The position numbers were made by a program, and so were the translations under genes. A stretch of 63,698 bases of DNA, filler included. It is 10 parts of 10 records of this genome, joined end to end, with 100 filler letters (N's around TTAATTAATTAA, not from the genome) between each part and the next. Parts side by side here need not be neighbours in the genome. Positions count along the whole stretch, not along the records: positions 31,461 to 36,472 come from SRR31147125_132431; 9 more parts are not named here. One strand, 5' to 3'. The first letter of the stretch is position 1, and every line of letters begins with the position of its first letter. The notes beneath the pieces are model-generated. The model saw only the letters and a list, made by a program, of their open reading frames with translations, was not told the DNA's origin and did no database searches. Below, piece after piece: positions 1 to 36,572 of this stretch.

Positions 1-473
1 AGGTTCCTCAGGTTCCTCAGGTTCCTCAGGTACAACATCGAACGAGGACACCGATGCAATGGAGAAACGAAGGAGGGAGGTGTGTGAATGTGTGGATCCT
101 GCCATGCATTGGTTACCCTTTGTTGAATAGGTGGACGAGGAACGATTGAAAACCGCTCAGAGATTGGCAGAGGCTGTGGAGGTAGGAGGAAGGAAGTTAC
201 AGAACCGAATACCATCCTCACGACCGATAGGCCCAGAAATGTGCTGAGAGGAAGCAACGGGAGGAGGTACTCGCGCGTCTACGCGATCTAGAAAGGCGAA
301 AACGTGAACTGGAGGAGGAACTCGAACGAAGACGCGAAGACTCACCCGATCAGAAGACGAGGGAAGAACCATCAGAACCACCAAGACGTCCAACGAAACG
401 CTCTCATCTGAAAAGTGTGATCGTCGTTCCCAGTACAACCGATCGTCGGCGGTGGGGGGTGAGGGAGAAGTGA
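1..473 (+). CDS. 3' part of a eukaryotic charged coiled-coil protein (2 introns; 5' truncated)
   Basis: Splicing two GT-AG introns (~80-130, ~182-230) gives (GSS)n-GTTSNEDTDAMEKRRREVDEERLK...EVLARLRDLERRKRELEEELERRRE...LKSVIVVP...REK*. No family recognised. Confidence 0.5.
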
Positions 474-524
474 AGACAATCCGAAGCCGATCCTCCAGTC
501 TCCCGTGTGTCCTTTGTGTGGAGA

Positions 525-2054
525 ATGAGACGGAACCTCTATCTGCTTCTCGTCTGTGTCTTTCTTGTTTCCTTGCACGGTCAGGAGAGTGAGGGTGAAG
601 GGGCAAGGAGGAATGAAAGTGACGCAGAGACAAGTTTCCAAGAGGGTGTGGATTTCTTTCTTCATGTAGGATAGAGAGAGAAAGAGAGCGAAGTGTTTGG
701 GGTGGCGCTCAGGGGTGTTGACGTGCAAGGACTTCTTTGATCTTGCCCTTGAGAGGTTTCATACGGCTGTACGACTGAACCCCGACGTCTCTGCCGCTTG
801 GGCGAACCTTGTACGTATTGTATGCCGCAGAGAAGGGTAGCGAGCCACCAACCCAGAGACAAGGGCATGACGTACATTGCACTGGGAGACAGTGCCCAGG
901 CAGAAGCTACCTATCTTGAGGGGCTACGCCGATTTCCACAAGATGAACAGTTGGAGGAGAATCTACGCGTCCTGCGACGACTTGAGGAGATCAAAGGCCT
1001 AGAAGAAAAGAAACGCACCGCACGAGCTGCTCAAACACACCAGGCAATGGAAACATTGATGGGTGTGCATCGGACTCAATATGAGACACTGGCGAGCCTT
1101 CTTCAGGGTGGTTCGATGAAAGATGCCCTGGCGTCTCTCTTGGATCTTCATGAGCAGCAGAAGAAACTCCAACAATACCTCTTACATCACTACGACACAC
1201 AGATGCAGGGAGAATCGGATGATCTGAAGGAAGACACACCAAACAACGACGTATTCCTTCTCCCTGCTCCTCAATTGTCCGGGCCTGTGAGTCTGGAAGA
1301 GGCCATTACACAACGACGGTCTATTCGAGACTTCTCTCAGGTGCATCCATGAGAAGGAAAGACATCCTTTGGTAGTCTAAGATCTCTCTTCAAGGAACCT
1401 GTGGCGTGGAATTTTTTATCTCAAGTCCTGTGGGCCATGGATGGGGATACACGGAATCCCGTGAAGAGAAAGCGGAATCGTTGGCGTTCTTCTCCATCTG
1501 CAGGGGGTTTGTCATCCCATGCGGAGGGAGTTTCTTCCTCTCATGTTCCCTTCAGCACTTTTCCCCCTGGAGATCTTTGTATGCCATCGCGATGGACTCT
1601 ACCAGTACATTCCTGAAGGACACAAACTCAGTCTTCATCAGGCAGGAGACATGCGGCACATTGTATGGCAGCATGGCCTGCAACAGGAGTGTCTCTATCG
1701 AGCCGATGCAATTCTCATTATCACGGCTGTGTATCGGCGATGTTCACACAAATACGGAGAACGGTACGAGTCCTCCCTCCTGTCTTACTGTATCAACCGA
1801 CTCCTCCTGTAGTGCTGAACGCTATGTCAAACTGGAGGCCGGGCATGTTGCACAAGTACGTCTTGAGGAATTCGTCCACATATTCAAGCCTCCATCCTTT
1901 GCAGAACGGCCTCCTCCAGGCTTCGGCTTTGGGGCTCGGAGCAACCCCCATTGGCGCATTCGACGACAGGGCCCTACACGAGGCATTGCACCTCCAACAA
2001 GGCTATGCCGTGCTTTATCTCATTCCCATGGGCTGGCCCCAACAGGATCACTAG
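525..2054 (+). CDS. Signal peptide + TPR + SagB/ThcOx-type nitroreductase-fold FMN oxidoreductase (6 introns)
   Basis: ATG525 MRRNLYLLLVCVFLVSLHG. Introns 666-729, 811-863, 1341-1394 and three more give TPRs (FQEGVDFFLHDFFDLALERFHTAVRLNP; AWANLGMTYIALGDSAQAEATYLEGLRRFP). These are followed by SLEEAITQRRSIRDF, RSSPSAGALFPLEIF and KYGERAERYVKLEAGHVAQNGLLQASALGLGATPIGAFDD, the canonical SagB-family motifs. Confidence 0.85.
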
Positions 2055-2080
2055 GGTTCTCTCCTTTTTTTGTACAAGGA

Positions 2081-4575
2081 TCACCCCTCTTCGCGCACAG
2101 GATCAAGACATGCCTGTATCATTCGCTCCAGTTCCGCTACTTGTATACGAACCATCTCTTCGGCACTCGCTCGTTCGGCAGCCTCCGTAGCATTGCCGTC
2201 GCATCCACTGGCTCGCACAGCTGCTAATCGCCCTTCAACTCCCTCTACGATGCGTTGTTTGTGAAGGAGCGCATCTTCTTGGGGAGAGGGTATGCAAAAG
2301 TTACGGTCAAGACCGAACACACACAGCCTGCCTGAGCTATCCCCCTATTGAAGACAGACAGAGTATGACTGACTAACTGCCCGACCACAGCAAGTGGAGG
2401 CGCACCGTGGCAGCAAGGTCACGTTCACGAGGATTGAATGCAACACTCAAGATCGGCTCCTTTTTCGGATCAACTTCCACACTCAACAGGGGGGCCATAC
2501 GGCTTCGCTGGTGTCACGACAAGGAATTCATCAAAATGACGGAGAGTGAGATGATCCCACAAACCTGTAGATCATAGACTACTAGACGTCCATCCCCTGA
2601 TCCCACGGCAAATACGAGTGGCCGCACGTTGGACCACGCCAAACCGTAGAGACCCGCGGAAGATGGCTCAAACGATGCAAGTGGTCGTGCCTGGAAGTGT
2701 ATTTCGCGTGAGGGGAAAAGGGCCGTACACACAAGACACAACCTGAAGACGATCGTAGATGTGAATTCGGCCATCACTGCTTGTCGAAGCAAACAGATTG
2801 CGAAGAAACGGGGAACATTCCATCCCGTGAACGGGACCCATGTGGGGATGGAACGAAAAACTCACCGCACCCCCGAAAAAATGAGGTACCTAACACGTGT
2901 GGTCACGGATTCTCATCTTGTCCAACAACATGGCCCACAAAACCTGCTTATGGGCCTCCAACACACTCGCTACGCTGATCTCAGCCAACCGTCGTTGTGT
3001 TGCATAGCTTTCCGTGCGAACCTACCATTCTATCATCCCCCCGCCCCCTTGATCACTCACACACCACATGGCCGTACCTTGACTTCCATGGCCTCGCGTG
3101 GAGGCAGACTTCCCACAAGAACTTGAGCATCCCGTCTCCATACCATACCTCCGTGTTCTATCCCCTTGATTTCACCCCGCCGGATCACACAACGATGCAC
3201 ACCCCCACTTTCCGTCCCCACAACAAAGGTGCCCCAATCTTTGCGCGAAAAAGAGAGTGATGTTCCACCCATTGGTGGGGTCCGATCCACACTTGAGAAA
3301 CTGTCACGCAGTTCAACTCTGGAACAATGTAAAGATCCAAAGATCCGAAGATCCGAAATCCACAAGAAGAGAAGGAAGGCACAAACCCAAACACAGGGAA
3401 GGCGAGACGGTTCTCCTCGGTCCAAAACAGCACCTTTCCATCTCCTGCTACACTCACAATCTACATACAGGATGAATCAATATGGGTCTGATTCGCTGCC
3501 ATCCCCGGCACACGTCACCTTGTACACGTGCGTTTCGTGGTCAAATAACCAGGTGACCTGTGCGCAGAATGATTCCCACAGGCGGAACACGGTACTCCGA
3601 TTCCTACTTTGGCAATGAATTCTCGATGAAGATGTTCAGCCGTCCGAGATGGCGATACAATGGGTTCCTCGGACACGGCGAAGTTCCACAACAGGATCTC
3701 TCCTAGAAATCACATCACACTCCCATCATCCATAGCACACTTCGCACTTCACACCATTATACGATCCGGCAACCAGAATTCCCGGATTCTCCGGATGAAA
3801 AGCAAGGCACATAAGACAGTTCTGCCTCTGATTCATCACCTTCCCAGTCCCAAGATGTCCCTCCTTACCAACAACAAACAACAACACACCTGCGTCTCAA
3901 TCCGTCTATCGGCTGTGTTGGGATCGATACGGTGTCGGGCTACGTTCCAGGTACACAGCACACCTACGTGATCACACCAACTTTCATGATCGATCCGTCC
4001 AAATCTGTCCATGGTAAAGTAGACGCGGGGCAGAAAGGAAGGGAAGAGGATACGATCCCGCCACTGTTGTTCCCAGGGCATTCCATCCCACTCCCGTGCA
4101 CACAAGAGACGGATCCATGTGTACGTCACGAAGTGCATGGAGACGACCACACGGTGCACCATCGTCCCAGCCCCACTCTACCAAATCGAACTCGGGTGCC
4201 GCACGCAGGTTCTTCTCCATTTGTGCTTCGACAAGGGGTCCTGCATGGGCAAGAAAGCGAGATACAGCCCCAGAAGTGATGCCTACAGGGGCTATCAGAG
4301 ACGTGCGCGCCCTGTACTGCTGACTCCAAACCATCATCGAGCGCCGTGGGGTGCACCTGCGCCTGGACCTGTTGTCCCTTCTCTCAGCACGCCGATGACA
4401 GGGCAACGACAAGAACCAACACACGCACGCTCGCGTCCGCATGAGTCCCGACTTGTGTTGGAGTCTCACGGGTGTCGATCGGTGTCGTCTGCACTGTAGC
4501 CTCTTCCACAACACGACGGGACCGCCACGTCGAGTCCACGGAAGCCTCTACCCCCTCCCAGTCCTCAAACACCAT
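2081..4575 (-). CDS. WDR34: WD40 dynein-2 (IFT dynein) intermediate chain WDR34/FAP133/DYNC2I2 (~13 introns)
   Basis: Spliced product: MVFEDW...VDSTW, QT motifs, WNALGTTVAGSFGRIDHESWC, CLAFHPENPGILVAGSYNGE, SVAGDGKVLFW, FVVGTESGGV, HMGPVHGMECSPFLRNLFASTSSDG, LAWSNVRPLVFAVG, ATGDSSG. Confidence 0.85.
4005..4053 (-). other. Putative U12-type (minor) GT-AG intron, 49 nt
   Basis: Donor GTATCCTCTT; branch-like CTACTTTAC 9 nt before the 3' end. Removal restores the conserved VAGS|FGRIDH motif. Confidence 0.7.
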
Positions 4576-4719
4576 TGGCGACGAATGAGAGATGTGATGT
4601 CGTTTGATTTGGTATGTGGGATCAGAGTGCATGGAACCCATTGGATCTATGTTCGTCCCGATCGGGGTGTGGAATCTATTCATCTCTTTAGATAGGCAGA
4701 TAGCAACAGCGAATTCAGA

Positions 4720-5174
4720 TCAACGACGACGAGGCACAAGCAGAGCGCCTATGATTATACCCACACCCACACTCACAGCCATGGGAATACCAAGCGCACG
4801 ATGGGCACTCCAATCTGTCGTCACAGCCTCTCCTAGAGAGTCAATACTTGTAGCGATCCGCTCCAGAGCGGCCAACAAGGATCGATCAAGGGTCCCTTCT
4901 GCCATATCCTCTACCACACGATCCTCGACTGCCTGCAAACGTCTCTGTAGATGAGTCGATTGTTCCACGAGGTAGGATACGTCTAGGGGGGGATGAATCA
5001 GACAGACGAAACCCACTGATCCAACCAACCAATCGCACACCGTCGCGAAGGAGAGACGCCTTCGGATCAACACGTTCCAATGGTGATGGAGCCTCGAATT
5101 GAGGTGGTTCGTTGTCCGGTTGTAAGCGTTCAGGTCTATCAGGCGACTCCTCCTCCTCCTCCTCCTCCTCCTCC
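4720..5174 (-). CDS. 3' part of a eukaryotic tail-anchored membrane protein (poly-E, coiled coil, C-terminal TM + RRR)
   Basis: One GT-AG intron; ends ...ALGIPMAVSVGVGIIIGALLVPRRR*. The (CCT)n microsatellite at the contig end encodes poly-Glu. Confidence 0.5.
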
Positions 5175-5274: not shown

Positions 5275-8200
5275 GTACACCGTCCTCCTTACTTGAGCCT
5301 GGGCTATCGGGGGAAACGGGTGCTATGGCCGATCTGAAGAACTCAAAACATCAGACACACAACCACAGGGGAAGATCTCTGCTCCCACTTACTTTCGCTT
5401 TGCTCGCACAGTGTAGGAATGAGCTACAGCTTCCACAAGATCGTGGGGTGGAAGCTATACGCGCGCTGTCTGTGAGGAACAACGAAGCAAACACAACCCA
5501 TTCCGCACATCACGGTCCTCGCGCTTCTCCAAGTTACGCAGTTTCACCGTCCCAGATGTGTGATACACCTTTTCCTTGATGATTACCTTGGTGGGGTCGT
5601 GTGTCACAACGAATTCCACCCAGACAGAGCAGGACGACACCCACCATCCATGTAATCCCATTGGAACGACAATAATCGGTCAACTCATCCAGTGTGGTTG
5701 GTTCGGAATACACCACCTCAGCCTTGGAGCAGAGGGGTCAGTCAGGGCCAGGACAAGAGGGCAGATCCCTCTCTGCAACCTTGATTCCGGCCTTCCAAAA
5801 TCGCAAACCAATCATCAAGCGAACATCTTCCATACGCTCCTCCGCAGAGCACACAAGAACGTCCACTGTAGGGGAACCCCCATGCCCAGCTTGCTAGAGA
5901 AGTTGTGAGCCGAGCGGGGGAGGAGACGATCTCACACCAGGACCCACCTTCAATCCTGACATGATGTTGTGGACGGAGATACTCACACCAACGGCATGGG
6001 CAGGCGCTCCCGCAGGCGTGTTGGGAGGGCGGAATTTGGTGATCAAACTGTCATAACGACCCCCCTAGTAGACGGAACAATCCACACTCAAGCGAAAAAC
6101 AACAATAACAACAACGCTAGACGTACCACGGCAATGGGATCAATTGTGCCACCACGCTTTGCGTAGACCTGGAACATGATACCCGAGTAGAGCGAGACGT
6201 TGTGCACAACGCCCAAGTCTACGATGACATTTCCCGCCTCCAGTTCTTTGAGGATATACAACAGAGCCTGCGAAACAGAAACATCGTTATCATTTGAAGG
6301 AGGTGAGCGGGGTCGGCGTGCCTTCAGCTCGTCAATCGCCGCCTTTGCCACCTCATCTCTGTCGCCGTGTACGAATCATGAAAACAGCAACGACGAAATG
6401 CATCTACGTACCCTCTCAAAGCCTTTAGGAGTCGATCCAGCACATCATTGGGAGCACCCTTGCAAGTCAAAACACGTGAGTTGACAACATCAATCGAGAA
6501 AAGAGAGAAAAAAAGAAGAACCTTGATGTGAAGGAAGCCTTCCAAACGATCGACTGATGTGCGTTCAATTCCATTCTGTGTCATCAATCGTCTGATATTG
6601 ACCCATGTCCGCTAGAAGTGTGTTCCAGGCACATATATGATTGATTGACAAATAACAATACGAAATAAGATACCTTGGCTGTCGAAACGAGATTGATAAG
6701 TTGGCACACCTCTCGCCGCCGCTCTCTGGGTATTTCACACGCATCCAAGACCCCATTCAATAGTTTCACATGACTCAACTATGGTTTAACGAAATCTAGT
6801 GAGATCGAGAAGAGCAAAGGGCTCATACCATCAGAAACCGACGGCCCAGGGCTGGAAAGGCTTCAAGAATCTCAACAACAACTCGCAACACCTCTGCATC
6901 CGCTACCAAGGGTCCCGTCTTCCCCACAATATCAAAATCACATTCTACAAACTCCTTGGGGGGGCCTCCATGTACATTTCGTCTGCCGACGTCCATGAGG
7001 GAACTCGCTCACACTCTCACAGGGGATCCCTACCGAAAGATTCGTGCGATGGAATATCGCTTCAGTAACGTAATCTGCCAATTCAAATGTGTTGGGCGGC
7101 GGAACAGAAGGACCAAGTCAAAACGAACCTGATTCCGTGCGACGTATCGTGCAAACGGAACCGTTAGATCGTAGGGAAGAGCCACAAGATCGCCCATTTC
7201 GTCCATGAACGTAGCAAGGCCTGATTGGCTCGCTATGCGACTCTGATAGGTGGACAACCACTCAGAACGAAAGCTGAGAAGGGGATACATGCCTTGGGAA
7301 TCATCAGGGGCGTATTCAGCTCGAGGGCACCGTGTCGCTTGCACACTTTCACCATATGGCTGACGATTTGATTCCAGAGAGACGTGTCACTGGTCACAAA
7401 TTTCTTCGCGGACTGTAGACGCCTTCATCGGTATCACGCACACACGCTACCATCTCCGGCAAACCTTATAATCGTATGCAAAATCGGCTGTATCGTTATC
7501 ACTACGAGAAAAGAGAGACACAAGAAGGCGGGGGAACAGTCCTTGGTCCGGATTCGTCATGGTGTGAATCATATCTTGGACATATTCGTCCCCCTAATCT
7601 CGTACGGATGAGAAGTGGTACCATAGGACACCTCGAACACCACGCACAAAAGGAATGAGATCACTTCGCAGAAGGTCGATGGCAGTGGGTCGGTGTGACG
7701 GGTCCCTCTTGACCAGCCACTTGATCAGCTCACTCTTCTTCTGGTGCATGCGTTCGAACTCCTCCGGCAGTGTCCCATAACGTTTGAGATCCGAAATCGT
7801 CTGAAGGGAAAGTTAGCGATGGGGCTCGGGAGAGAGAGAGAGCCAGGGAAACCCCAAACCTGGATGCGCTCCATCTGGGTCCCAAACGGAAGACACATCT
7901 CAAGGAAAATGATACCCAGACTGAAAATGTCCACCTGGCTCCGAGATGAGAGGAGAGAAGAGGACAATGAAAGTCATCCACCAACTTCCTACGCACTCGT
8001 TGATCATACTTTGCCCCTTCTTCAACTTCGGGGCTGGCGTAGAGCGGTGTACCAATTTGGCCTGTTGCATTTCGTGGTGCGCCATCACTCTGCACATCTC
8101 CACACACATCCTCCAAGAAATCAAAGGCCTTGCCTCCCGGTGCATATTTGGGAGAGAGGAGATTGATGTTATGAGGGGCCGCCAATCCAAAGTCACCAAT

Positions 8201-10837
8201 CTTCACATCCCCCGCTGTGTCCATAAAGATGTTACTAGGCTTTAGATCACGATGAATAATCCCTGGGTTCGTTGTGAGGACAACGGAGCACAACAAGACC
8301 AACCCTACCTTTGCTATGAATGTGGACTAATCCTTCCACAATTTGACGGAAGAAGCGCCAGATTTCACTTTCATCTGTTGTTGAAGTGCCTTCTTCAATC
8401 ACCTTTTGTAGAAACAGCCGTGTTGGGAAGGCAGGCAACACCACAGACATACGGATCACCCACGCACCGTACGAAGGGTCTTCTTCGTGCAATACTCCAT
8501 CTGAATGTAAAGCCAGGGGGCAGGTCCCGTCGGAGGACTATCACTCTGAAAGGAGACCATCCCATCAGGGTGGTGGGAGTGGGGGTGGGGGGGAACATAC
8601 ATCGTCACCAGTGCTCGAAGATGAAGGATCCTCACTTGTTTCTGTTGGTCCTGTTGGACGTGTGCCAAAGTTCGTGATAAACCCGCCGCCCTCGGCAAAG
8701 GAGGGAAAGTTGGCCTCCAGGGGTTTAGGGGGATTTCGAAAGGAGAATCCTTCATGGAAGAGATGAGTTACGGTACGAGGAACCGGGGTGTGAAACGTAC
8801 CCTTACTGGAGGACATCCAGTCACCCTCATCGCCAGCGGAGTCATCCTCTTCCTCATCGGCGTCCATTACTGTTTCCATGTCAGAGAAGGCACTTCCACC
8901 TCACCCTCACACCTACCGGATGAAGCCTCGCCACCTTCAATCCACGCTTGATAATAGCGCACGACGAACTGATGGTGAAGCCGTGAGAGAAACAGTACCT
9001 CACGAAGGATCTTGGCGTTCAAAGCCTGTTCCGAGGAAAGGGGGATGTTGAGGACACACACCTCACGTGCCTCACACCACCAACCTTGTCTTTCGGATCC
9101 AAGCGGACTTTCTTAATGGCGTAGAAACGTCCATCAAGCTTATTCTTCGCCTACCATTCGTACACGTATAAGAAACAAAGAGGTTGTGTGCACACACCAC
9201 ACGGACCTTCACAACATCACCAAAAGCCCCATGACCGATTGACTCAATTTCCTCAAAATCATTGCGATATCGCGACTGAGCAGGAGCCCTTGGCTAAATG
9301 CAACCAGTAGTGGGCATCCCATGTCCATGTAGCACACACACGAACCAAAGAATCTTCAGCATCATCCACTTCCGACACACAAATCGTCGAGAACAGATCG
9401 TCTGACTCTGTATCTGACACACATCATTGGTACAACAAACACCAATACAACATGGCGCACCTTTTGATTGTGCTGCTAGAAGCGCCGTATTCGGTTTCCG
9501 TGGTACATCAACGCAAAAAGGATGAGACAACAACTGAGTGGCACTGGGACGGTTGTGGGGATCGCTTTGGATGTTCTGATGTCAACAAGAGTAGATAGAA
9601 CATCACATTCATCCCCTCACCGCGTGAAGCATTTCAGACAGAAGTCGCGGGCTTCGTCGGACATGGTGTCAGGGAAAGACGACATGGGGTCTTGCCCGCG
9701 TCCAATGTTAATGATCACCTTGGTTGGAGGATGTCAGCCAGTACGCGGCACACAAGACGACGTATCCCTAACCTGGTTCATGTGCTCTAGGTTGTGAAAG
9801 GGGAAGTGTCCTGTGGCCATTTCAATTACCGTGCACCCGAGAGACCAGACATCACAGTGTCGCCCGTATCCATCCTGCCGAACGACCTCTGGTGCCATCC
9901 TGTGTTGTATCGCACGAGAATGAAAAGGGGAAAGGGAAAGAAAAGGGGGAACCAACGCACCATCGTGGCGTCCCGCGGACCGATTTGAGCATCCCCGACC
10001 AGTCTATCCACAACGAAACCCATGAATGAGCCATCCTCCCTTCACCCCAACATACCCTCTGTACGATTCATCTTCTTGGAGGTTCCAAAGTCGGCAAGTT
10101 TCACGTGTCCATTCGAATCTAGAAGGAGATTGCCTCCCTTGATATCTGTGGGATGGGAATTCAATATCAAAGAGGCCGTGCATACGCACACATACATACC
10201 TCGGTGAACAATGCCTTGAGAGTGAAGGTACTCCAATCCCATCAAGATCTGTCTGGTATAGCATCGAATAACCGATTCTTCAAGTCGTGGGGGATGGAGC
10301 TTACTCATCAGGGAGGAGATTGATCCGCATGGCATGTATCTATTCATCGAGTGAGGATTGCAGGCATCGAGTGGGTGCCACATACTCCATCAGGACGGTT
10401 AATGTGCGACAGGGACCAGACGACATCTCCGTGCCAAGGTAACGGACAATGTGTGGATGTTGGAGATTTCGCATCAAATTAACCTCTTCGCACACTTTGG
10501 CGAGCTGGATGCAACAGGCATTACACGCAAAGAGTCGTGTGTAAACAAACGCACTTCAACTTCCAGAAACTCCATTCGATGAACCCCAGGATCAGGAACG
10601 GAGATCTGTTTCGCTGCCAGCATCTAATATGCACACAACACAATGACGAATCGCGATAATGAAGGAAAAGCGTACTTCGCCTGTGTCCAGATTCATTCCC
10701 AGAAAGACCTTTCCCACTTGTCCCTGTCCCAGGAGTTCGCCACGCTGCCATCGAATCTTTCCACATTCCCTGCGACAATGCAGTCTTAGTTCTGAAACAA
10801 CATACACAAGGGCGGGACAAACTGGACAAGGCGTTGG
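5275..10837 (-). CDS. GCN2: eIF2-alpha kinase GCN2 (MAP3K-like kinase domain + eIF2a kinase + HisRS-like + anticodon-binding-like), ~28 introns, cut at both contig ends
   Basis: [60 protein letters not shown], acidic insert, [35 protein letters not shown]. Then HisRS-like [39 protein letters not shown]. Confidence 0.9.
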
Positions 10838-26899: not shown

Positions 26900-27883
26900 A
26901 TGGTAAATAGATTTTTAAAGGTTCTGCTTTTTGGGGCTGCGATGTTGGTTGGCCTTAACCCCGTTTTTGCAGATGATAATAAATATGTCATTGCCAGGGT
27001 TGGTGATGTTGATATCACGGTATTTGAATTGCAGAGGCAATCCCAGCGCATTATGCCCTTTAACAAGACGTTTCATGGTGGGGTCTCTAAAGAAAAAATG
27101 CATGAAATCCGAATGATGGCATTTGAAACCCTTGTCGAACAGGCCTACAAAGTTAATTACGCACAGAGAAATAATATTTTGGCTCCTGAAGATCGAGTTC
27201 AAAAGAAAATTGACGCAGTTGTTGCGAAGGTGGGTGGTCAAGAGCAATTGATGAAGGTGCTGCGCGATGAGAGTTATGAGTCTTTTAAAGCATCGGTGGA
27301 AAGACTTCTGGTCTCTGAGGAGGCTGAAGAAATCGCGGTCAAGTCAAAAATTGACATTGGCGATGAAGAGTTGCTGACTTTTTATCGTGCGAACACTTTC
27401 ATGTATCAGCGCCCGAAGAAATATCGAGCCAGTCATATTCTTATCCGGGTTGACCCGAGCTTGGTGGGTGAAGAGCGACAAAAATTGATTTCTAAAGCTG
27501 AAAAGCTCGCCGAGCAAGCAAAATCTGGAGAAGACTTCTATAACTTGGCTTATTATAATTCCGACGAGGATACTAAATTTGTTGGCGGTGATATCGGTTA
27601 TTTTCAATCGGGGCAAACGGTTAAGGAATTTGAGGATGCTGTCAAAGAGTTAGAACCGGGGGATATCGTTGGTCCGGTCGAAACGATCTCAGGTTTCCAT
27701 GTCATTCAATTGACGGATATCCAGGATGCACGCTTGCTGGATTTTGATGAAGTAAAAGGGAAAATAAAGAAAACACTGGAAGATAAGCAATATGGGCAGC
27801 GATATAGTGAATGGATTTCTGAATTGGAAAGAACGGTTGAAATTGTAATATTTCATCCTGAACTAAAATCATACGATCAGTAG
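26900..27883 (+). CDS. PpiC/parvulin (SurA/PrsA-like) periplasmic foldase
   Basis: Signal peptide, YRASHILI, GEDFYNLA, GGDIG, GPVETISGFHVI. Confidence 0.92.
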   Translation: MVNRFLKVLLFGAAMLVGLNPVFADDNKYVIARVGDVDITVFELQRQSQRIMPFNKTFHGGVSKEKMHEIRMMAFETLVEQAYKVNYAQRNNILAPEDRVQKKIDAVVAKVGGQEQLMKVLRDESYESFKASVERLLVSEEAEEIAVKSKIDIGDEELLTFYRANTFMYQRPKKYRASHILIRVDPSLVGEERQKLISKAEKLAEQAKSGEDFYNLAYYNSDEDTKFVGGDIGYFQSGQTVKEFEDAVKELEPGDIVGPVETISGFHVIQLTDIQDARLLDFDEVKGKIKKTLEDKQYGQRYSEWISELERTVEIVIFHPELKSYDQ

Positions 27884-31360: not shown

Positions 31361-31486
31361 NNNNNNNNNNNNNNNNNNNNNNNNNNNNNNNNNNNNNNNN
31401 NNNNTTAATTAATTAANNNNNNNNNNNNNNNNNNNNNNNNNNNNNNNNNNNNNNNNNNNNACACACACACACACACACACACACAG

Positions 31487-31937
31487 GAGTACTACTACAA
31501 GGTGTTTGATCGATCCCGCCACGTAGGTTCCCGTGTCGTGGTGTATCGCGTGTCACACCCACGCAGGACCTCTTCCACTTCTACCGCGACTCCTCGCTTG
31601 TGTTATGGAATGGAAACCTGAAGAGCGGCTCTGTCTCCTCCCTTCGCGACTTCTTCCTCCAACTTCCCACCACCTCGCACTTCACAAGTAGTATTGACTG
31701 TCAACCCATCCCAGGTACCGCCGATGTGTGTGCGTGTCCGTCCACCCTTCCTCTCCTAACAATATTGTAGCATCCCAACCCGGCTGCAGCAGTATCCTTG
31801 TGGCTGTAGCAGGAACCGTCAAGTACGACGAAGCCCAACCACGACCCTTCATGCAAACCTTTGTCCTGACGCAAGACACGTCCAAAGAAGACCGCCCCTA
31901 CTACATTGCCTTGGATTGTCTTCGGTTTCTCACATGA
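31487..31937 (+). CDS. NXT1: NTF2-related export protein NXT1/p15 (5' truncated; 2 full introns)
   Basis: EYYYKVFDRSRH|DLFHFYRDSSLVLWNGN...LPTTSH...IDCQP|...ILVAVAGTVKY...FMQTFVL...YYIALDCLRF. Confidence 0.8.
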
Positions 31938-32035
31938 AAGCAACTCATCCTCCCCTGTCACTGTTGTTGCTGTCATTCTCCTCGCCACCCTCACCCACTG
32001 CCCCTGGGGTGGCGGGAACTCCATCATAAGAAGGA

Positions 32036-35000
32036 ATGGGAGGGCAGAGTAGCAAGTGGGAGCCGAGCAGTGAACGGGACGGTCTGATGCACCCACACCA
32101 GCGAGACACTGTGCGTAGACGAGCAGGTGTGGGACTCCGTGAACAAAGGAAACCACCTCTATGAACCCAGGAGGAGGACGGAGACATCCCTGCGCGCGTG
32201 GTCTACATCAACGAACCCAGTCTCAACGCCCTCTTCACCTACCCGTCCAACTTCACACGAACCCACAAGTATACAGGTACCAGACATCTGTGTCGTATCG
32301 TGTCGCTCCCCTCACAACGAGCGATCAGCGTGGAACTTCCTTCCCAAGAACTTGTTTGAACAATTTCGAAGAGCGGCCAACTTCTACTTCCTCCTCATCA
32401 CTCTGATCCAACTGATTCCGGACACAACTCCTATCCCACCGTATGTTGGAACGGGATGGATCCCGTCCACTCGATAACACAGGTTCTTTCAGCGTCACAT
32501 CCATTTTCCCGTTAATCGTTGTGATTTCGATCTCTGCCGTCAAGGATGGCTATGAAGACTATGTGTGTATCATTCATTGTATTCGTTCCTTTGAAGGGAG
32601 TCTTATACCCCGCAGCAACGGTACCTGGCCGACAAGGCAGTGAACGGACGGAGATCAGCTGTGGTTCGAAATGCTCGTGTTGAATCCAGTCTATGCATGG
32701 ATCTCGTTGTGGGAGACATTGTTTATGTCTCGGAAGGTGAAGAGTTCCCGGCGGATTTGATACTTCTGGCAACCTCAGGACACGAGGGGACGTGCTACGT
32801 GGAAACGAGCAATCTGGACGGGTACGCCTACCTACACACACAACCTATGCGTGCTTTGACCCGTGTCATATTGAGTAGCGAGACGAATCTCAAGGTCAAG
32901 CGTGCTCCAACAGCCACAGCATCCCTAGTGACCCCTGCCGCCTTGTCGACCTTACAAGGACGTGTGGAGTGTGAGGCACCCAATGCCGATCTGTACCGCT
33001 TTGAAGGGCGTCTTGTGATAACAGCCTCTCATGAAAAGTGTCCACTCACCATCAGTCAGCTCCTGTTGCGAGTGCGTTGCCGTTTCTGTATTGGTGTACG
33101 GAGGGGACTCACACGCCCAGCAGGGATCAGTACTACGGAACACACACTACGTGATGGGTCTTGTGATGTACAGTGGAAGTGATGCGAAGATTCTTCTTAA
33201 TGCCCAAGAGGCACCATCAAAGTTCTCACGTGTGGAAGCATTTCTGAATCACCTCGTGGTGGTTGTGTTTGTCTTTCAGTTGTTCGTCGCCTTCTTCTCC
33301 ACAACGATGTGTATTCTCTGGAAGGTGTGCCCGCCCGCCCGCCCGCCCGCCTCCCTCCTAACAAAGTTGTACTCCACACCACAGGAGATGGAGGGCGGAG
33401 ATGCCTGGTACTTGGATCTCAAGGAAGAGGCATTCCACTGGGTCTGGGTGCCAATCAAGAACTTTTTGACATTCTTGATCCTTTACAACTTCATGATCCC
33501 CATCTCTCTTATTGTTTCCGCAGAGATGGTGAAGGTGAGAGTCGGATGCCCGATCCCCCTCCTCCATCCTTCGTGTAAGCTGTATGGGGTGGGGGAACAG
33601 GTGGTCAATGCTCTGCTTATTTGGTGGGATCTGGAACTGTACGACGAGGATGCCCAACAACCTGTGACGGTGAACACGTCAGGACTGGTGGAGGAGTTGG
33701 GACAGATTCAGTACATCTTCACCGACAAGACCGGAACGTTGACGGAGAATGTCATGCGACTGAGGAAGCTCAGTATTGGCGGCGTACGCCATACTGTTGA
33801 CAACCTTCCCACCGACGACGAGTCTGTTCGTGCCTTCCTCCTAACACTCGCCCTGTGTCACACGGCCGAGCCGAGCCACACAGCCCAAGGCGGACTGAAG
33901 TTTCAAGTAACATCACCAGATGAAGAAGCCCTTCTCAGTGGAGCCCATGCTGCAGGAGTCAGCTTTCATTCTGTGCGTGACATGCACACACACGCGCGCG
34001 CACACACACTCATGATATAGCCAGCTCGTGGATAAGAAAATGAGTGTGAGGATTGGAAACGAAGAATTCACATACACCATTCTCGATGTGTTAGAATTCA
34101 GTTCGAGTCGTAAGCGAATGTCCATCCTCTTACGTAGGGCAGATGGGACGATTTGGCTTTTGTGCAAGGTTCGTTCCCTGGATTGGTGGTGGTGATGGTG
34201 CTCATCATGGCCGTCATGGCACTAGGGAGCGGAAAGTGTTATCTTTCCACGACTGACTCCCGGCCAAACCAAGGCCGACATGGCATGGCAACACATCACA
34301 GAATACGCAAATGAAGGTTGGTTTGCATCGTTGGCTGGTAGCACAGAGACTCACATCAGCGTTCACTTCAACACAGGGCTCCGAACTCTGTGTTTTGCGT
34401 CGCGTGATGTCTCCGAGGAAGAGTATGTGGCATGGGCCTCAGGTATGCGTGAGGCCGAGGCAATGCTTCACGCCCGAACAGAGAAGATGGAGGAACAGTA
34501 CGCGTAGTTTTGTTCTGGTTAAAAGTCCTTTCTCAGTGTTCCCCCAGCTATGAACTAATTGAAAAGGATCTCGTCCTCCTGGGCGCCACGGGGATTGAGG
34601 ATCGGTTACAGCTTGACGTGCCGGAAACATTACGGGATCTGCAACGTGGAGGGATTCGGTGGGTTCGGTGGGTTACCACTCCCGCTCAATCAATCTCACC
34701 CATACGACCCAGTGTATGGATGTTGACAGGGGATAAGCAAGAGACAGCCATCTCGATTGGCCGTTCCTGCAACCTCATCTTCCCTGACACAGTGATGATT
34801 CTTATCAACGCCAAAACTGCAAAGCATTGTGAGGCACTTCTACGCGAGAACGTTGCCCTGTATGGGCGCCGCGGAAAGCGTTCACGCAACAATGGAAATC
34901 GTACCCTCGTTATTGATGGCGTTTCGCTCGCGTTTGTATTTGACGGAGAACAGCATCGACGTCTCTTTGTCCACTTGTGTTCGGTGATGCAATCGGTGGT

Positions 35001-36377
35001 CTGCTGTCGAATGTCTCCCCTCCAGAAGGCCCTGGTGATTCGACTGATGAAAGAACGGCCCAATCCTCCTATCACGTTGGCTGTGGGAGACGGAGCCAAC
35101 GATGTGTCCATGATTCAGGAAGCAAACGTGGGGATAGGGATCAAGGGACGCGAGGGACGCCAAGCTGCCCGATCCTCCGACTACGCTGTAGCGGAATTCC
35201 GCATGCTCAAACGACTTCTTCTTGTTCACGGACGTTACTCCTACATTCGTGTGTCCACTCTGATTCAATACTCCTTCTACAAGAACATGGCTTTCTCTTT
35301 GCCGCTTTTCTATTTCGGATTCTTCTCAGGGTTCTCGGGTCAGGTGTGTACTGACGGATCAATCCGCCTTGTACCCCACGAGGCCCTCACACTCCGTCAG
35401 ATCCTCTACGATCCTTTTCTTATGATGATTTTCAATATCATTTTCACATCCTGGCCCATTCTTGTGGTGGGGATCTTTGAGCAAGACGTTCCTGACAAGG
35501 CTGCCATGGAACATCCACAACTGTACGGTGTCCCCCTTGTTTTCCCTCGTATCCCATACCCCTCCTTCACACAGGTATCGGCGTCTGGCACAAGGGGAGG
35601 AGTTTAGTAATTCGACCTTCCTCAACTGGATTCTGAGTTCGGTGTGGCATTCCCTCCTCATCTTCTTTGGTGTTGTTTTCTTGTACGTCTCTCCGTTCCA
35701 TGCACGGATAGAAGAGAAACTCACGGGGATACCAGATACAAGAGCGATCTGCTTGTGGAGAATGGGCAAACATTCGGTCTGTGGGGCTTCGCAACAATGT
35801 CGCTGATGTTGTGTATTGTCATTGTTAATCTCAAGATTGGAATTGAAACAAGGTGGGAGGAAAGGTAACGTTCTCTCTTCCTCCTTCTTAATACGATGGC
35901 GATCCCAGGTATTGGACCGTGTGGAATCATATCAGTGTTTGGGGATCAATTGCGGTCTTCTTTGCGTTCCTCTACCCCTACTGTCTCCTGCTCGAGTGGT
36001 CTTCCATGTACGGTGTTGTATGTATCCTTATATGCCTTTCGTCTCCCGTGTTCTTCCTTGACGGGAGTAGCACGTATGTCGGCAAGTCTGGTATTGTGGA
36101 TCTCCATGGGAGTATTCGCCTTCATTGCAGTAGCCCCGGATTTCTTGTTGAAGTTGTACGTTGTCGTTGGCGATGGTGTGGTTATTCATTACATCCCAAA
36201 TACCACAGTGCATGGCGATTCCTGTGGCCCACAGATTGGCAAGTTGTCCAGGAGTTCTACCGCAAAGCAAAATACCTCAAGGGTGATGTGATGCCCGATG
36301 GCGTTGTGAAGTTGTGGCGTGATGCGGCCGATGACGAGGAGCCTCCAGAAGATCCTACGACCCTTCTCAAGAAATAG
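32036..36377 (+). CDS. P4-type ATPase phospholipid flippase (~18 introns)
   Basis: [121 protein letters not shown]. Confidence 0.93.
36022..36070 (+). other. U12-type (minor) GT-AG intron, 49 nt
   Basis: Donor GTATCCTTAT and branch site TTCCTTGAC (36054-36062) 8 nt before the 3' end. It is the only nearby splice that restores the last TM helix. Confidence 0.85.
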
Positions 36378-36572
36378 AAAGAGAAATACACCTTTTCAAT
36401 CACGTAAGAGAAAGGCCAGAAGTTCCTCCAGATCCTGTGTAGAGGAGGTGGGGGTGTGCGTGTGGGGTGGTGNNNNNNNNNNNNNNNNNNNNNNNNNNNN
36501 NNNNNNNNNNNNNNNNTTAATTAATTAANNNNNNNNNNNNNNNNNNNNNNNNNNNNNNNNNNNNNNNNNNNN

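Follow-up and report, generated by a model that had tools for sequence, protein, structure and literature searches.

Does the 49-nucleotide (nt) intron at positions 36022 to 36070 of the DNA stretch analysed here, which interrupts a gene for a P4-ATPase (phospholipid flippase), belong to the minor, U12-type class of introns, and does it mark a genome in which such introns are unusually dense? A preliminary description of the DNA had answered the first question with yes and the second with perhaps. The window, by which we mean the whole stretch that was analysed, is 63,698 bases long and holds ten contigs of 5-8.5 kb with N/stop-codon linkers between them. Three of these contigs look eukaryotic, with broken reading frames and a G+C content of 51-53%: positions 1-5174 (contig 1), 5275-10837 (contig 2) and 31461-36472 (the flippase contig). 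The remaining seven are prokaryote-like, with long open frames. Window-wide statistics therefore blend unrelated organisms, and all statements about the host of the intron rest on the approximately 15.7 kb of eukaryotic DNA. The three eukaryotic contigs are alike in G+C content, intron length and donor type; their common origin in one organism is not proven. The 74 introns listed for them, most of which are predicted, are short, with lengths of 44-74 nt and a median of 54 nt.

The intron at 36022 starts with GTATCCTTAT. Minor introns are described, in the available excerpts of a study of Physarum splicing, by the 5' consensus [G/A]TATCCTT and the branch consensus TTCCTT[G/A]AC, with up to about 45 bases separating the latter from the 3' splice site (10.1101/2020.10.12.336362). 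The 5' splice site here, GTATCCTT, fits the first in 8 of 8 positions, and TTCCTTGAC, the branch-point sequence, fits the second in 9 of 9, such that the published U12 consensus is matched at all 17 positions (10.1101/2020.10.12.336362). The putative branch adenosine, A36061, is at position −10 when the last intron base is counted as −1. The eight bases after the branch motif, GGGAGTAG, contain no pyrimidine tract and end in the terminal AG at 36069-36070. Such a tract is distinctive of U2-type introns according to excerpts of another paper, and minor introns are for that reason expected to lack it (PMC8329584); its absence here and the short distance from the branch site to the 3' end fit the minor class. 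The intron furthermore has a C at position +5 and a T at −3, and the adjoining exon ends with a T at −1 (position 36021). Among human minor-like introns, those that need the minor spliceosome tend to avoid a G at exon position −1, as stated in the part of that work available to us, and T36021 therefore fits dependence on the minor spliceosome (PMC11347168). The same position lacks a G in all three introns that carry a GTATCC donor (36022, 4053-4005 and 7288), whereas a TCCTTRA-type motif was detected in just one of the 74 listed introns, the one at 36022-36070. Read directly from the sequence, the length of 49 nt, the donor and a branch motif 8 nt before the 3' end are as first described.

Evidence for excision was provided by assembled contigs of two public sequencing runs, X1 and X2, both from one sample. 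The spliced X1 contig joins position 36021 to 36071, skipping 49 bases with GT..AG ends; the shorter side of the joint comprises 85 letters and its positional ambiguity is 0. X1 has 13 joints in all on the flippase contig, each of which skips 44-60 bases with GT..AG ends. The X2 contig is unbroken over 35933-36109 and corresponds to the unspliced form. None of the sequencing runs that match the contig is recorded as RNA, and for both X1 and X2 the kind is given as the guess 'DNA?'. We nevertheless read X1 as resembling complementary DNA (cDNA), because it skips 13 GT..AG introns and an intron-less DNA copy that is otherwise identical is unlikely. The reading frame was less decisive than the preliminary description had assumed. 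Its argument that the overlapping GTATGT donor at 36018 yields no in-frame product held, but it had overlooked that a GT at 36013 is in frame with both nearby AGs, and that the donor at 36022 is also in frame with the AG at 36066-67. Since these options give in-frame products as well, the frame alone left the junction open. The transcript contig does not use the GT at 36013, and the junction 36021/36071 was selected because of the X1 joint and because no gap interrupts the alignment of the spliced product with 12 full-length P4-ATPase homologues, which runs from the conserved YWT..H..WGS helix to ...PDFLLK...DWQ and includes the last membrane helix. The 49-nt excision exactly at 36021/36071 is thus observed. 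This junction, which had been put forward for confirmation in transcripts, and the product ...APDFLLK with the last transmembrane helix were both borne out.

Could the segment not be an intron at all? Translation might read through it, or the joint might be an assembly artefact or stem from an intron-less DNA copy. The frame of the upstream exon is indeed open from 35892 to 36377, which would allow read-through, and the 'DNA?' label of X1 would allow an artefact or a DNA copy. However, the read-through peptide is unlike the last P4-ATPase helix whereas the spliced peptide aligns gap-free, and the skipping of 13 separate GT..AG segments in an otherwise identical sequence is the pattern of cDNA. 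We consider these explanations extremely improbable.

The intron also stands apart from the U2-type introns of its host. The 12 other transcript-verified introns on the flippase contig start with GT[AGT][CGT]..., and 11 of them have a G at position +5. When 21 introns of the contig were scored with a profile made from 20 U2-like introns, the 36022 intron had the lowest score at both ends: 4.4 bits for its donor (4.8-10.5 for the others) and 2.6 for its acceptor (3.1-9.0 for the others). A pooled set of 71 U2-like introns, consisting of 20 curated ones on the flippase contig and 51 script-predicted ones on contigs 1 and 2, has G at +5 in 62, G at exon position −1 in 42 and C at intron position −3 in 45 members. 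Since the 36022 intron ranks last for donor and acceptor alike and carries C at +5 and T at −1, its signals are distinct, as the preliminary description had maintained. The U2 profile gives ATCCTT at positions +3 to +8 a probability of 1.4e-4, and TCCTTRAC, at one of the eight positions that suit it, a probability of 3.8e-4. For a single U2-type intron to carry both motifs, the joint chance comes to about 5e-8; across 74 introns it amounts to 4e-6.

Simulations of the window with a first-order Markov model gave the strict motif arrangement in 0 of 300 cases against one observed occurrence, and a looser motif pair in 20 of 300, again against one observed. Before a proper 3' end was required, the only other loose match in the window was a motif pair at 27666 on the minus strand; it is located on a prokaryote-like contig and was dismissed as noise. 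When both strands of 80 further eukaryotic P4-ATPase loci (379 kb) were searched, no compact motif pair with a proper 3' end was found; many of these loci are possibly intron-less transcripts. When a spacing of up to 1500 nt was allowed, the same loci contained nine pairs, 11 to 1363 nt apart.

With exact borders in a transcript contig, agreement at 17 of 17 consensus positions and signals distinct from those of the U2-type introns around it, 36022-36070 is very probably a genuine U12-type intron, as had been proposed. Established knowledge of the minor spliceosome suggests how it would be removed. The U11/U12 di-small nuclear ribonucleoprotein would recognise the intron as a unit, U11 pairing with GTATCCTT at the 5' splice site and U12 pairing with TTCCTTGAC such that A36061 is bulged. 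U4atac/U6atac.U5 would join next, and U6atac would take the place of U11 at the 5' splice site. A36061 would then attack G36022, and the second transesterification would join T36021 to C36071. Given excision at the exact borders of an intron with minor-class signals, the organism most likely keeps a working minor spliceosome.

Several observations weigh against this assignment. The transcript support consists of one assembled contig from one run whose kind is only guessed. Among the relatives found there is no orthologue close enough for checking the conservation of the intron or of its motifs. A search of the whole window with Rfam returned no match at the gathering score or at E values up to 1, and hence none to U11, U12, U4atac or U6atac, although this result says little, as the eukaryotic part of the window amounts to only about 15.7 kb. 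The U2-type donors of the host tolerate C at +5 (GTACCG and GTACCA; 7 of 71), so a GTATCC donor alone is not proof; this tolerance weakens the second and third candidates described below more than the 36022 intron. Finally, the TTGAC of the branch motif is one base off CTNAC, which can be read by eye near the 3' end of many of the U2-type introns here.

Some of these points favour another explanation of the excision, namely that the major (U2-type) spliceosome carries it out. The minor-class signals of the intron would then be a relic or a coincidence, and the minor spliceosome would have been lost, or the intron would be a 'minor-like' one handled by U1 and U2. The lack of any Rfam match to a minor small nuclear RNA (snRNA) in the window, the loose U2 donors and the similarity of TTGAC to CTNAC would be in keeping with this, and classes intermediate between minor and major introns have been described, as far as excerpts of that work show (PMC11347168). 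On the other hand, a relic should decay, whereas all 17 consensus positions are intact. The intron lacks a G at both exon −1 and +5, the positions that carry most of the U1-type information in this host, it has no pyrimidine tract after the branch site, and the joint chance of its two motifs in a U2-type intron is very small. There is also a second intron with a GTATCCT donor that has the same length and likewise lacks a G at −1. Because a relic should have decayed and the positions relevant to U1 are absent, we regard removal by the major spliceosome as quite unlikely, and favour the U12-type assignment.

The second of these introns, at 4053-4005 on the minus strand of contig 1, starts with GTATCCTC and belongs to a WDR34/DYNC2I2-like gene. 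No other GT-AG pair joins the conserved segments on its two sides in frame. When it is spliced out, the number of residues between two conserved motifs, as counted, equals that in P0125, the best homologue of the gene, which in turn matches human WDR34/DYNC2I2 chains (E 1e-77). The preliminary description had counted this intron as a further minor one; its start and the junction derived from homology to P0125 uphold its existence. Its branch motif is degenerate (6 of 8 positions by count, with an A at −11), and judged by its sequence it is a probable minor intron. Our gene-finding script had chosen 4024-3964 in this region instead, a call that was replaced by 4053-4005 on the basis of homology. 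A 75-residue exon of the WDR34-like gene had no protein match at E values up to 10.

Weaker still is a third candidate on contig 2, which was predicted by the script in the histidyl-tRNA synthetase (HisRS)-like part of a GCN2-like kinase gene and has the donor GTATCCCC. Its acceptor is ambiguous (7233 or 7221), it has no U12 branch motif, and at 7288 there are 14 in-frame alternatives, among them one with a U2-like GTGGTT donor at 7261. The 62-residue HisRS-like stretch gave 13 weak matches (E 0.08-0.7), of which the named ones are HisRS; they did not decide the choice of junction. Other motif occurrences were rejected. GTATCCTA at 4980 on the minus strand follows 2 nt behind a predicted acceptor and is read in frame as part of the coding sequence. 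ATATCCT at 6257 on the minus strand also reads as coding sequence, and ATATCCT at 4904 on the plus strand and those on the prokaryote-like contigs were set aside on sequence context. In the 5' part of the WDR34-like gene, the motifs GTATCCTA at 4980 (minus) and ATATCCTC at 4904 (plus) occupy opposite strands at a distance of about 75 nt; this pairing is probably a coincidence.

How dense, then, are minor introns in this genome? GTATCC donors occur in 3 of 74 introns, whereas 0.115 would be expected from the U2 profile, and a small, distinct class of introns therefore seems to exist. Likely or candidate minor introns number two or three of about 74 (approximately 3-4%), in six genes on three contigs. 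Most of the denominator is predicted: contigs 1 and 2 contributed 53 introns (6 + 16 + 18 + 13) from our own profile-based dynamic-programming script. These calls are unverified, and some of those near gene borders are doubtful. On its training gene the script recovered 17 of 19 flippase introns, missing two that are in frame and free of stops, and it mis-called one of two verified introns in an NTF2-like gene.

The preliminary description had suggested a high density, and a strong enrichment would make this a second expansion resembling that of Physarum, with minor introns of about 49 nt accounting for several percent of all introns. Two secure or likely GTATCCT introns plus one weak GTATCC intron in about 74 introns and six genes would point that way, given the expectation of 0.115 such donors and the low densities reported elsewhere, 0.28% in human and 0.55% in Basidiobolus in the excerpts available (PMC10639083). 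Yet the presence of such an intron was the reason for choosing the window, the script alone, with the errors noted above, is the source of 53 of the 74 introns, the full branch motif is present in one intron only, and a common origin of the three contigs in one organism is not proven. Two of 74 is, moreover, compatible with a density of 0.5-1%. For these reasons the figure of 3-4% cannot be generalised, the claim of high density is unproven, and we consider strong enrichment unlikely. Equally doubtful in our judgement is a broader proposal, in which the three eukaryotic contigs would stem from a deep-branching, intron-rich lineage of uncultured flagellates with introns of about 50 nt, 1-4% of them being minor introns of about 49 nt with textbook signals. 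If that were true, the density would be the highest known outside Physarum, and a canonical minor spliceosome would work at scale near the physical minimum of intron length.

The flippase gene is complete on its contig; coordinates of this and the other features are given in Table 1. It matches Pfam family PF16212 (E 1.2e-26), and its model is a single open frame throughout, ending in a stop. The model was built from 11 junctions verified by X1, two supports from loose ends of X1 contigs, reading frames and tblastn comparison with homologues. Accordingly, 11 of its 19 introns have X1 joints, two have loose-end support, and six were placed by frame and homology. The six placed in this way have no transcript support because X1 cover is absent from some bins (32301-32468, 33477-33644 and 36165-36332). 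Intron 17 (35853-35908) precedes the exon upstream of the U12-type intron. The intron that follows the downstream exon is supported by the X1 contig, since 8 of the 9 letters of its loose end past 36155 match the sequence from 36209, where the next exon starts. Flippase introns are easily overlooked because 8 of the 19 have lengths divisible by three and several are free of stops in frame. With 19 introns in 1098 codons, the gene is very intron-rich considering how short its introns are. An NTF2-like gene (Pfam PF02136) with two verified introns is also represented on the contig, by its 3' part. Simple repeats are present at or inside introns: (CA)n at the start of the contig (31461-31484), a CA/CG-rich run within the intron at 33973-34024 and a (GCCC)n run within the intron at 33325-33384.

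Table 1. Positions in the window of the intron, its signals, the gene that contains it and related features.
Feature	Position	Strand	Evidence
P4-ATPase (phospholipid flippase) gene, 1098 codons, 19 introns of 49-66 nt	32036..36377	+	single open frame, Pfam
Upstream exon, 113 nt, encodes ...SSMYGVV	35909..36021	+	gene model, tblastn
U12-type GT-AG intron (very probable class), 49 nt, phase 1, intron 18 of 19 of the P4-ATPase gene	36022..36070	+	sequence and transcript joint
5' splice site GTATCCTT, putative pairing site of U11, then U6atac	36022..36029	+	consensus match
Branch-point sequence TTCCTTGAC, putative pairing site of U12	36054..36062	+	consensus match
Downstream exon, 85 nt, last transmembrane helix	36071..36155	+	X1 contig over 85 letters, gap-free alignment
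Last intron, U2-type, GTACGT...CACAG, 53 nt	36156..36208	+	X1 loose end, gene model
Second, probable U12-type intron, 49 nt, phase 2, WDR34/DYNC2I2-like gene, starts GTATCCTC	4005..4053	-	homology
Third candidate, weak, donor GTATCCCC, HisRS-like part of GCN2-like kinase gene	7233..7288	-	script prediction
Hemimastix match P0001, flippase exon	34714..35343	+	protein homology
Hemimastix match P0127, WDR34-like exon	3078..3317	-	protein homology

The host is an uncultured, intron-rich eukaryote with short introns, of which no close relative was found in the collections that were searched; in the only gene modelled in full, the coding sequence is interrupted by about 5-6 introns per kb. Among 5.8 billion protein clusters, the best 120 matches to the flippase exon are approximately 33-62% identical over their best local alignments, and the best homologues are about 44-55% identical over the 210-residue exon. 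When metagenome contigs were scanned with the same 210-residue exon, the best identity was 51%, and none of the 80 loci kept out of 300 relatives, which are the loci scanned for motif pairs above, was a sufficiently close orthologue. A scan of prokaryote genomes yielded just three weak matches, all in metagenome-assembled genomes labelled bacterial. Hemimastix kukwesjijk (EukProt) is among the best matches for two genes, with identities of 44-45%. These protein similarities may offer a lead on the affinity of the host, not a placement.

Other genes on contigs 1 and 2 were also noted. The gene predicted at 534-2036 on the plus strand of contig 1 has weak matches to tetratricopeptide repeats below the Pfam cut-off; its C-terminal part, as read from the predicted model, may be nitroreductase-like. 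Contig 2 carries, at 5771-10836 on the minus strand, the GCN2-like kinase gene with its HisRS-like region, adjoined by a second protein kinase gene. Within 7033-7218, the HisRS-like part probably contains an in-frame intron that the script overlooked.

Many protist lineages are known to have minor introns, and retention of the minor spliceosome across eukaryotes is patchy. With each new lineage that has it, the view of how it was lost and, rarely, expanded becomes sharper. For the lineage described here, a transcript-supported minor intron of 49 nt means that the system is very probably kept and that canonical U11/U12 signals fit into an intron of about 50 nt. If the two or three such introns in six genes reflected the whole genome, this would be a rare natural case of minor-intron enrichment. 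On present evidence, the assignment is a correct but fairly ordinary annotation. A full-text literature search found no paper linking U12-type introns with P4-ATPases or WDR34; supplementary gene lists, which were outside that search, could hold entries.

Compared with canonical U12-type GT-AG introns of animals, plants and other eukaryotes, the 36022 intron has an identical 5' and branch consensus, a branch site near the 3' end, no pyrimidine tract, GT-AG ends, a phase other than 0 and no G at −1. It differs in that canonical minor introns of animals and plants are typically much longer. Dependence on the minor snRNPs characterises the canonical introns, whereas the intron here was assigned to the class from its signals and its excision. 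Minor-like and hybrid introns, as described in the available part of Olthof et al. (2024), are probably close to the second and third candidates (GTATCCTC and GTATCCCC), while the 36022 intron differs from these classes by its full consensus at both sites and the absence of G at −1, a combination that goes with dependence on the minor spliceosome (PMC11347168).

Two protists offer the closest parallels, both known to us from excerpts of the papers cited. In Blastocystis sp. ST1 there are 346 U12-type introns, along with the full set of four minor snRNAs and seven specific proteins (PMC5608401); a stricter pipeline counted 253 such introns (PMC5608401; PMC10639083). They have a mean length below 42 bp and a median of 39 bp, 77% of them are AT-AC introns and 49% are in phase 0 (PMC10639083). 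Blastocystis is a tiny-intron protist that keeps the minor system, as the host described here very probably does. Its minor introns run into the hundreds and have a median length of 39 bp (PMC10639083), so one of 49 nt in another protist with tiny introns is not new in kind. The preliminary description had proposed a lineage that retains or expands tiny minor introns; the tiny introns (44-74 nt) and the failure to find a close relative stood, but tiny minor introns as such were already known. The host nonetheless differs from Blastocystis, in which AT-AC ends predominate and phase 0 is common, since the two introns here are GT-AG introns in phases 1 and 2; it also has a WDR34-like gene, which encodes an intermediate chain of cytoplasmic dynein 2. 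No named match among the best 120 P4-ATPase matches indicates Blastocystis.

Physarum polycephalum, with more than 20,000 minor introns and transformed splicing signals (10.1101/2020.10.12.336362), has the highest density known (PMC10639083). The corresponding values are 0.276% in human and 0.554% in Basidiobolus, the latter among the highest outside Amoebozoa (PMC10639083). Physarum is likewise a protist, its minor introns are far commoner than elsewhere, and it is the model for the idea of a high density in the present host. Its splicing signals, however, are transformed, whereas those of the 36022 intron are textbook.

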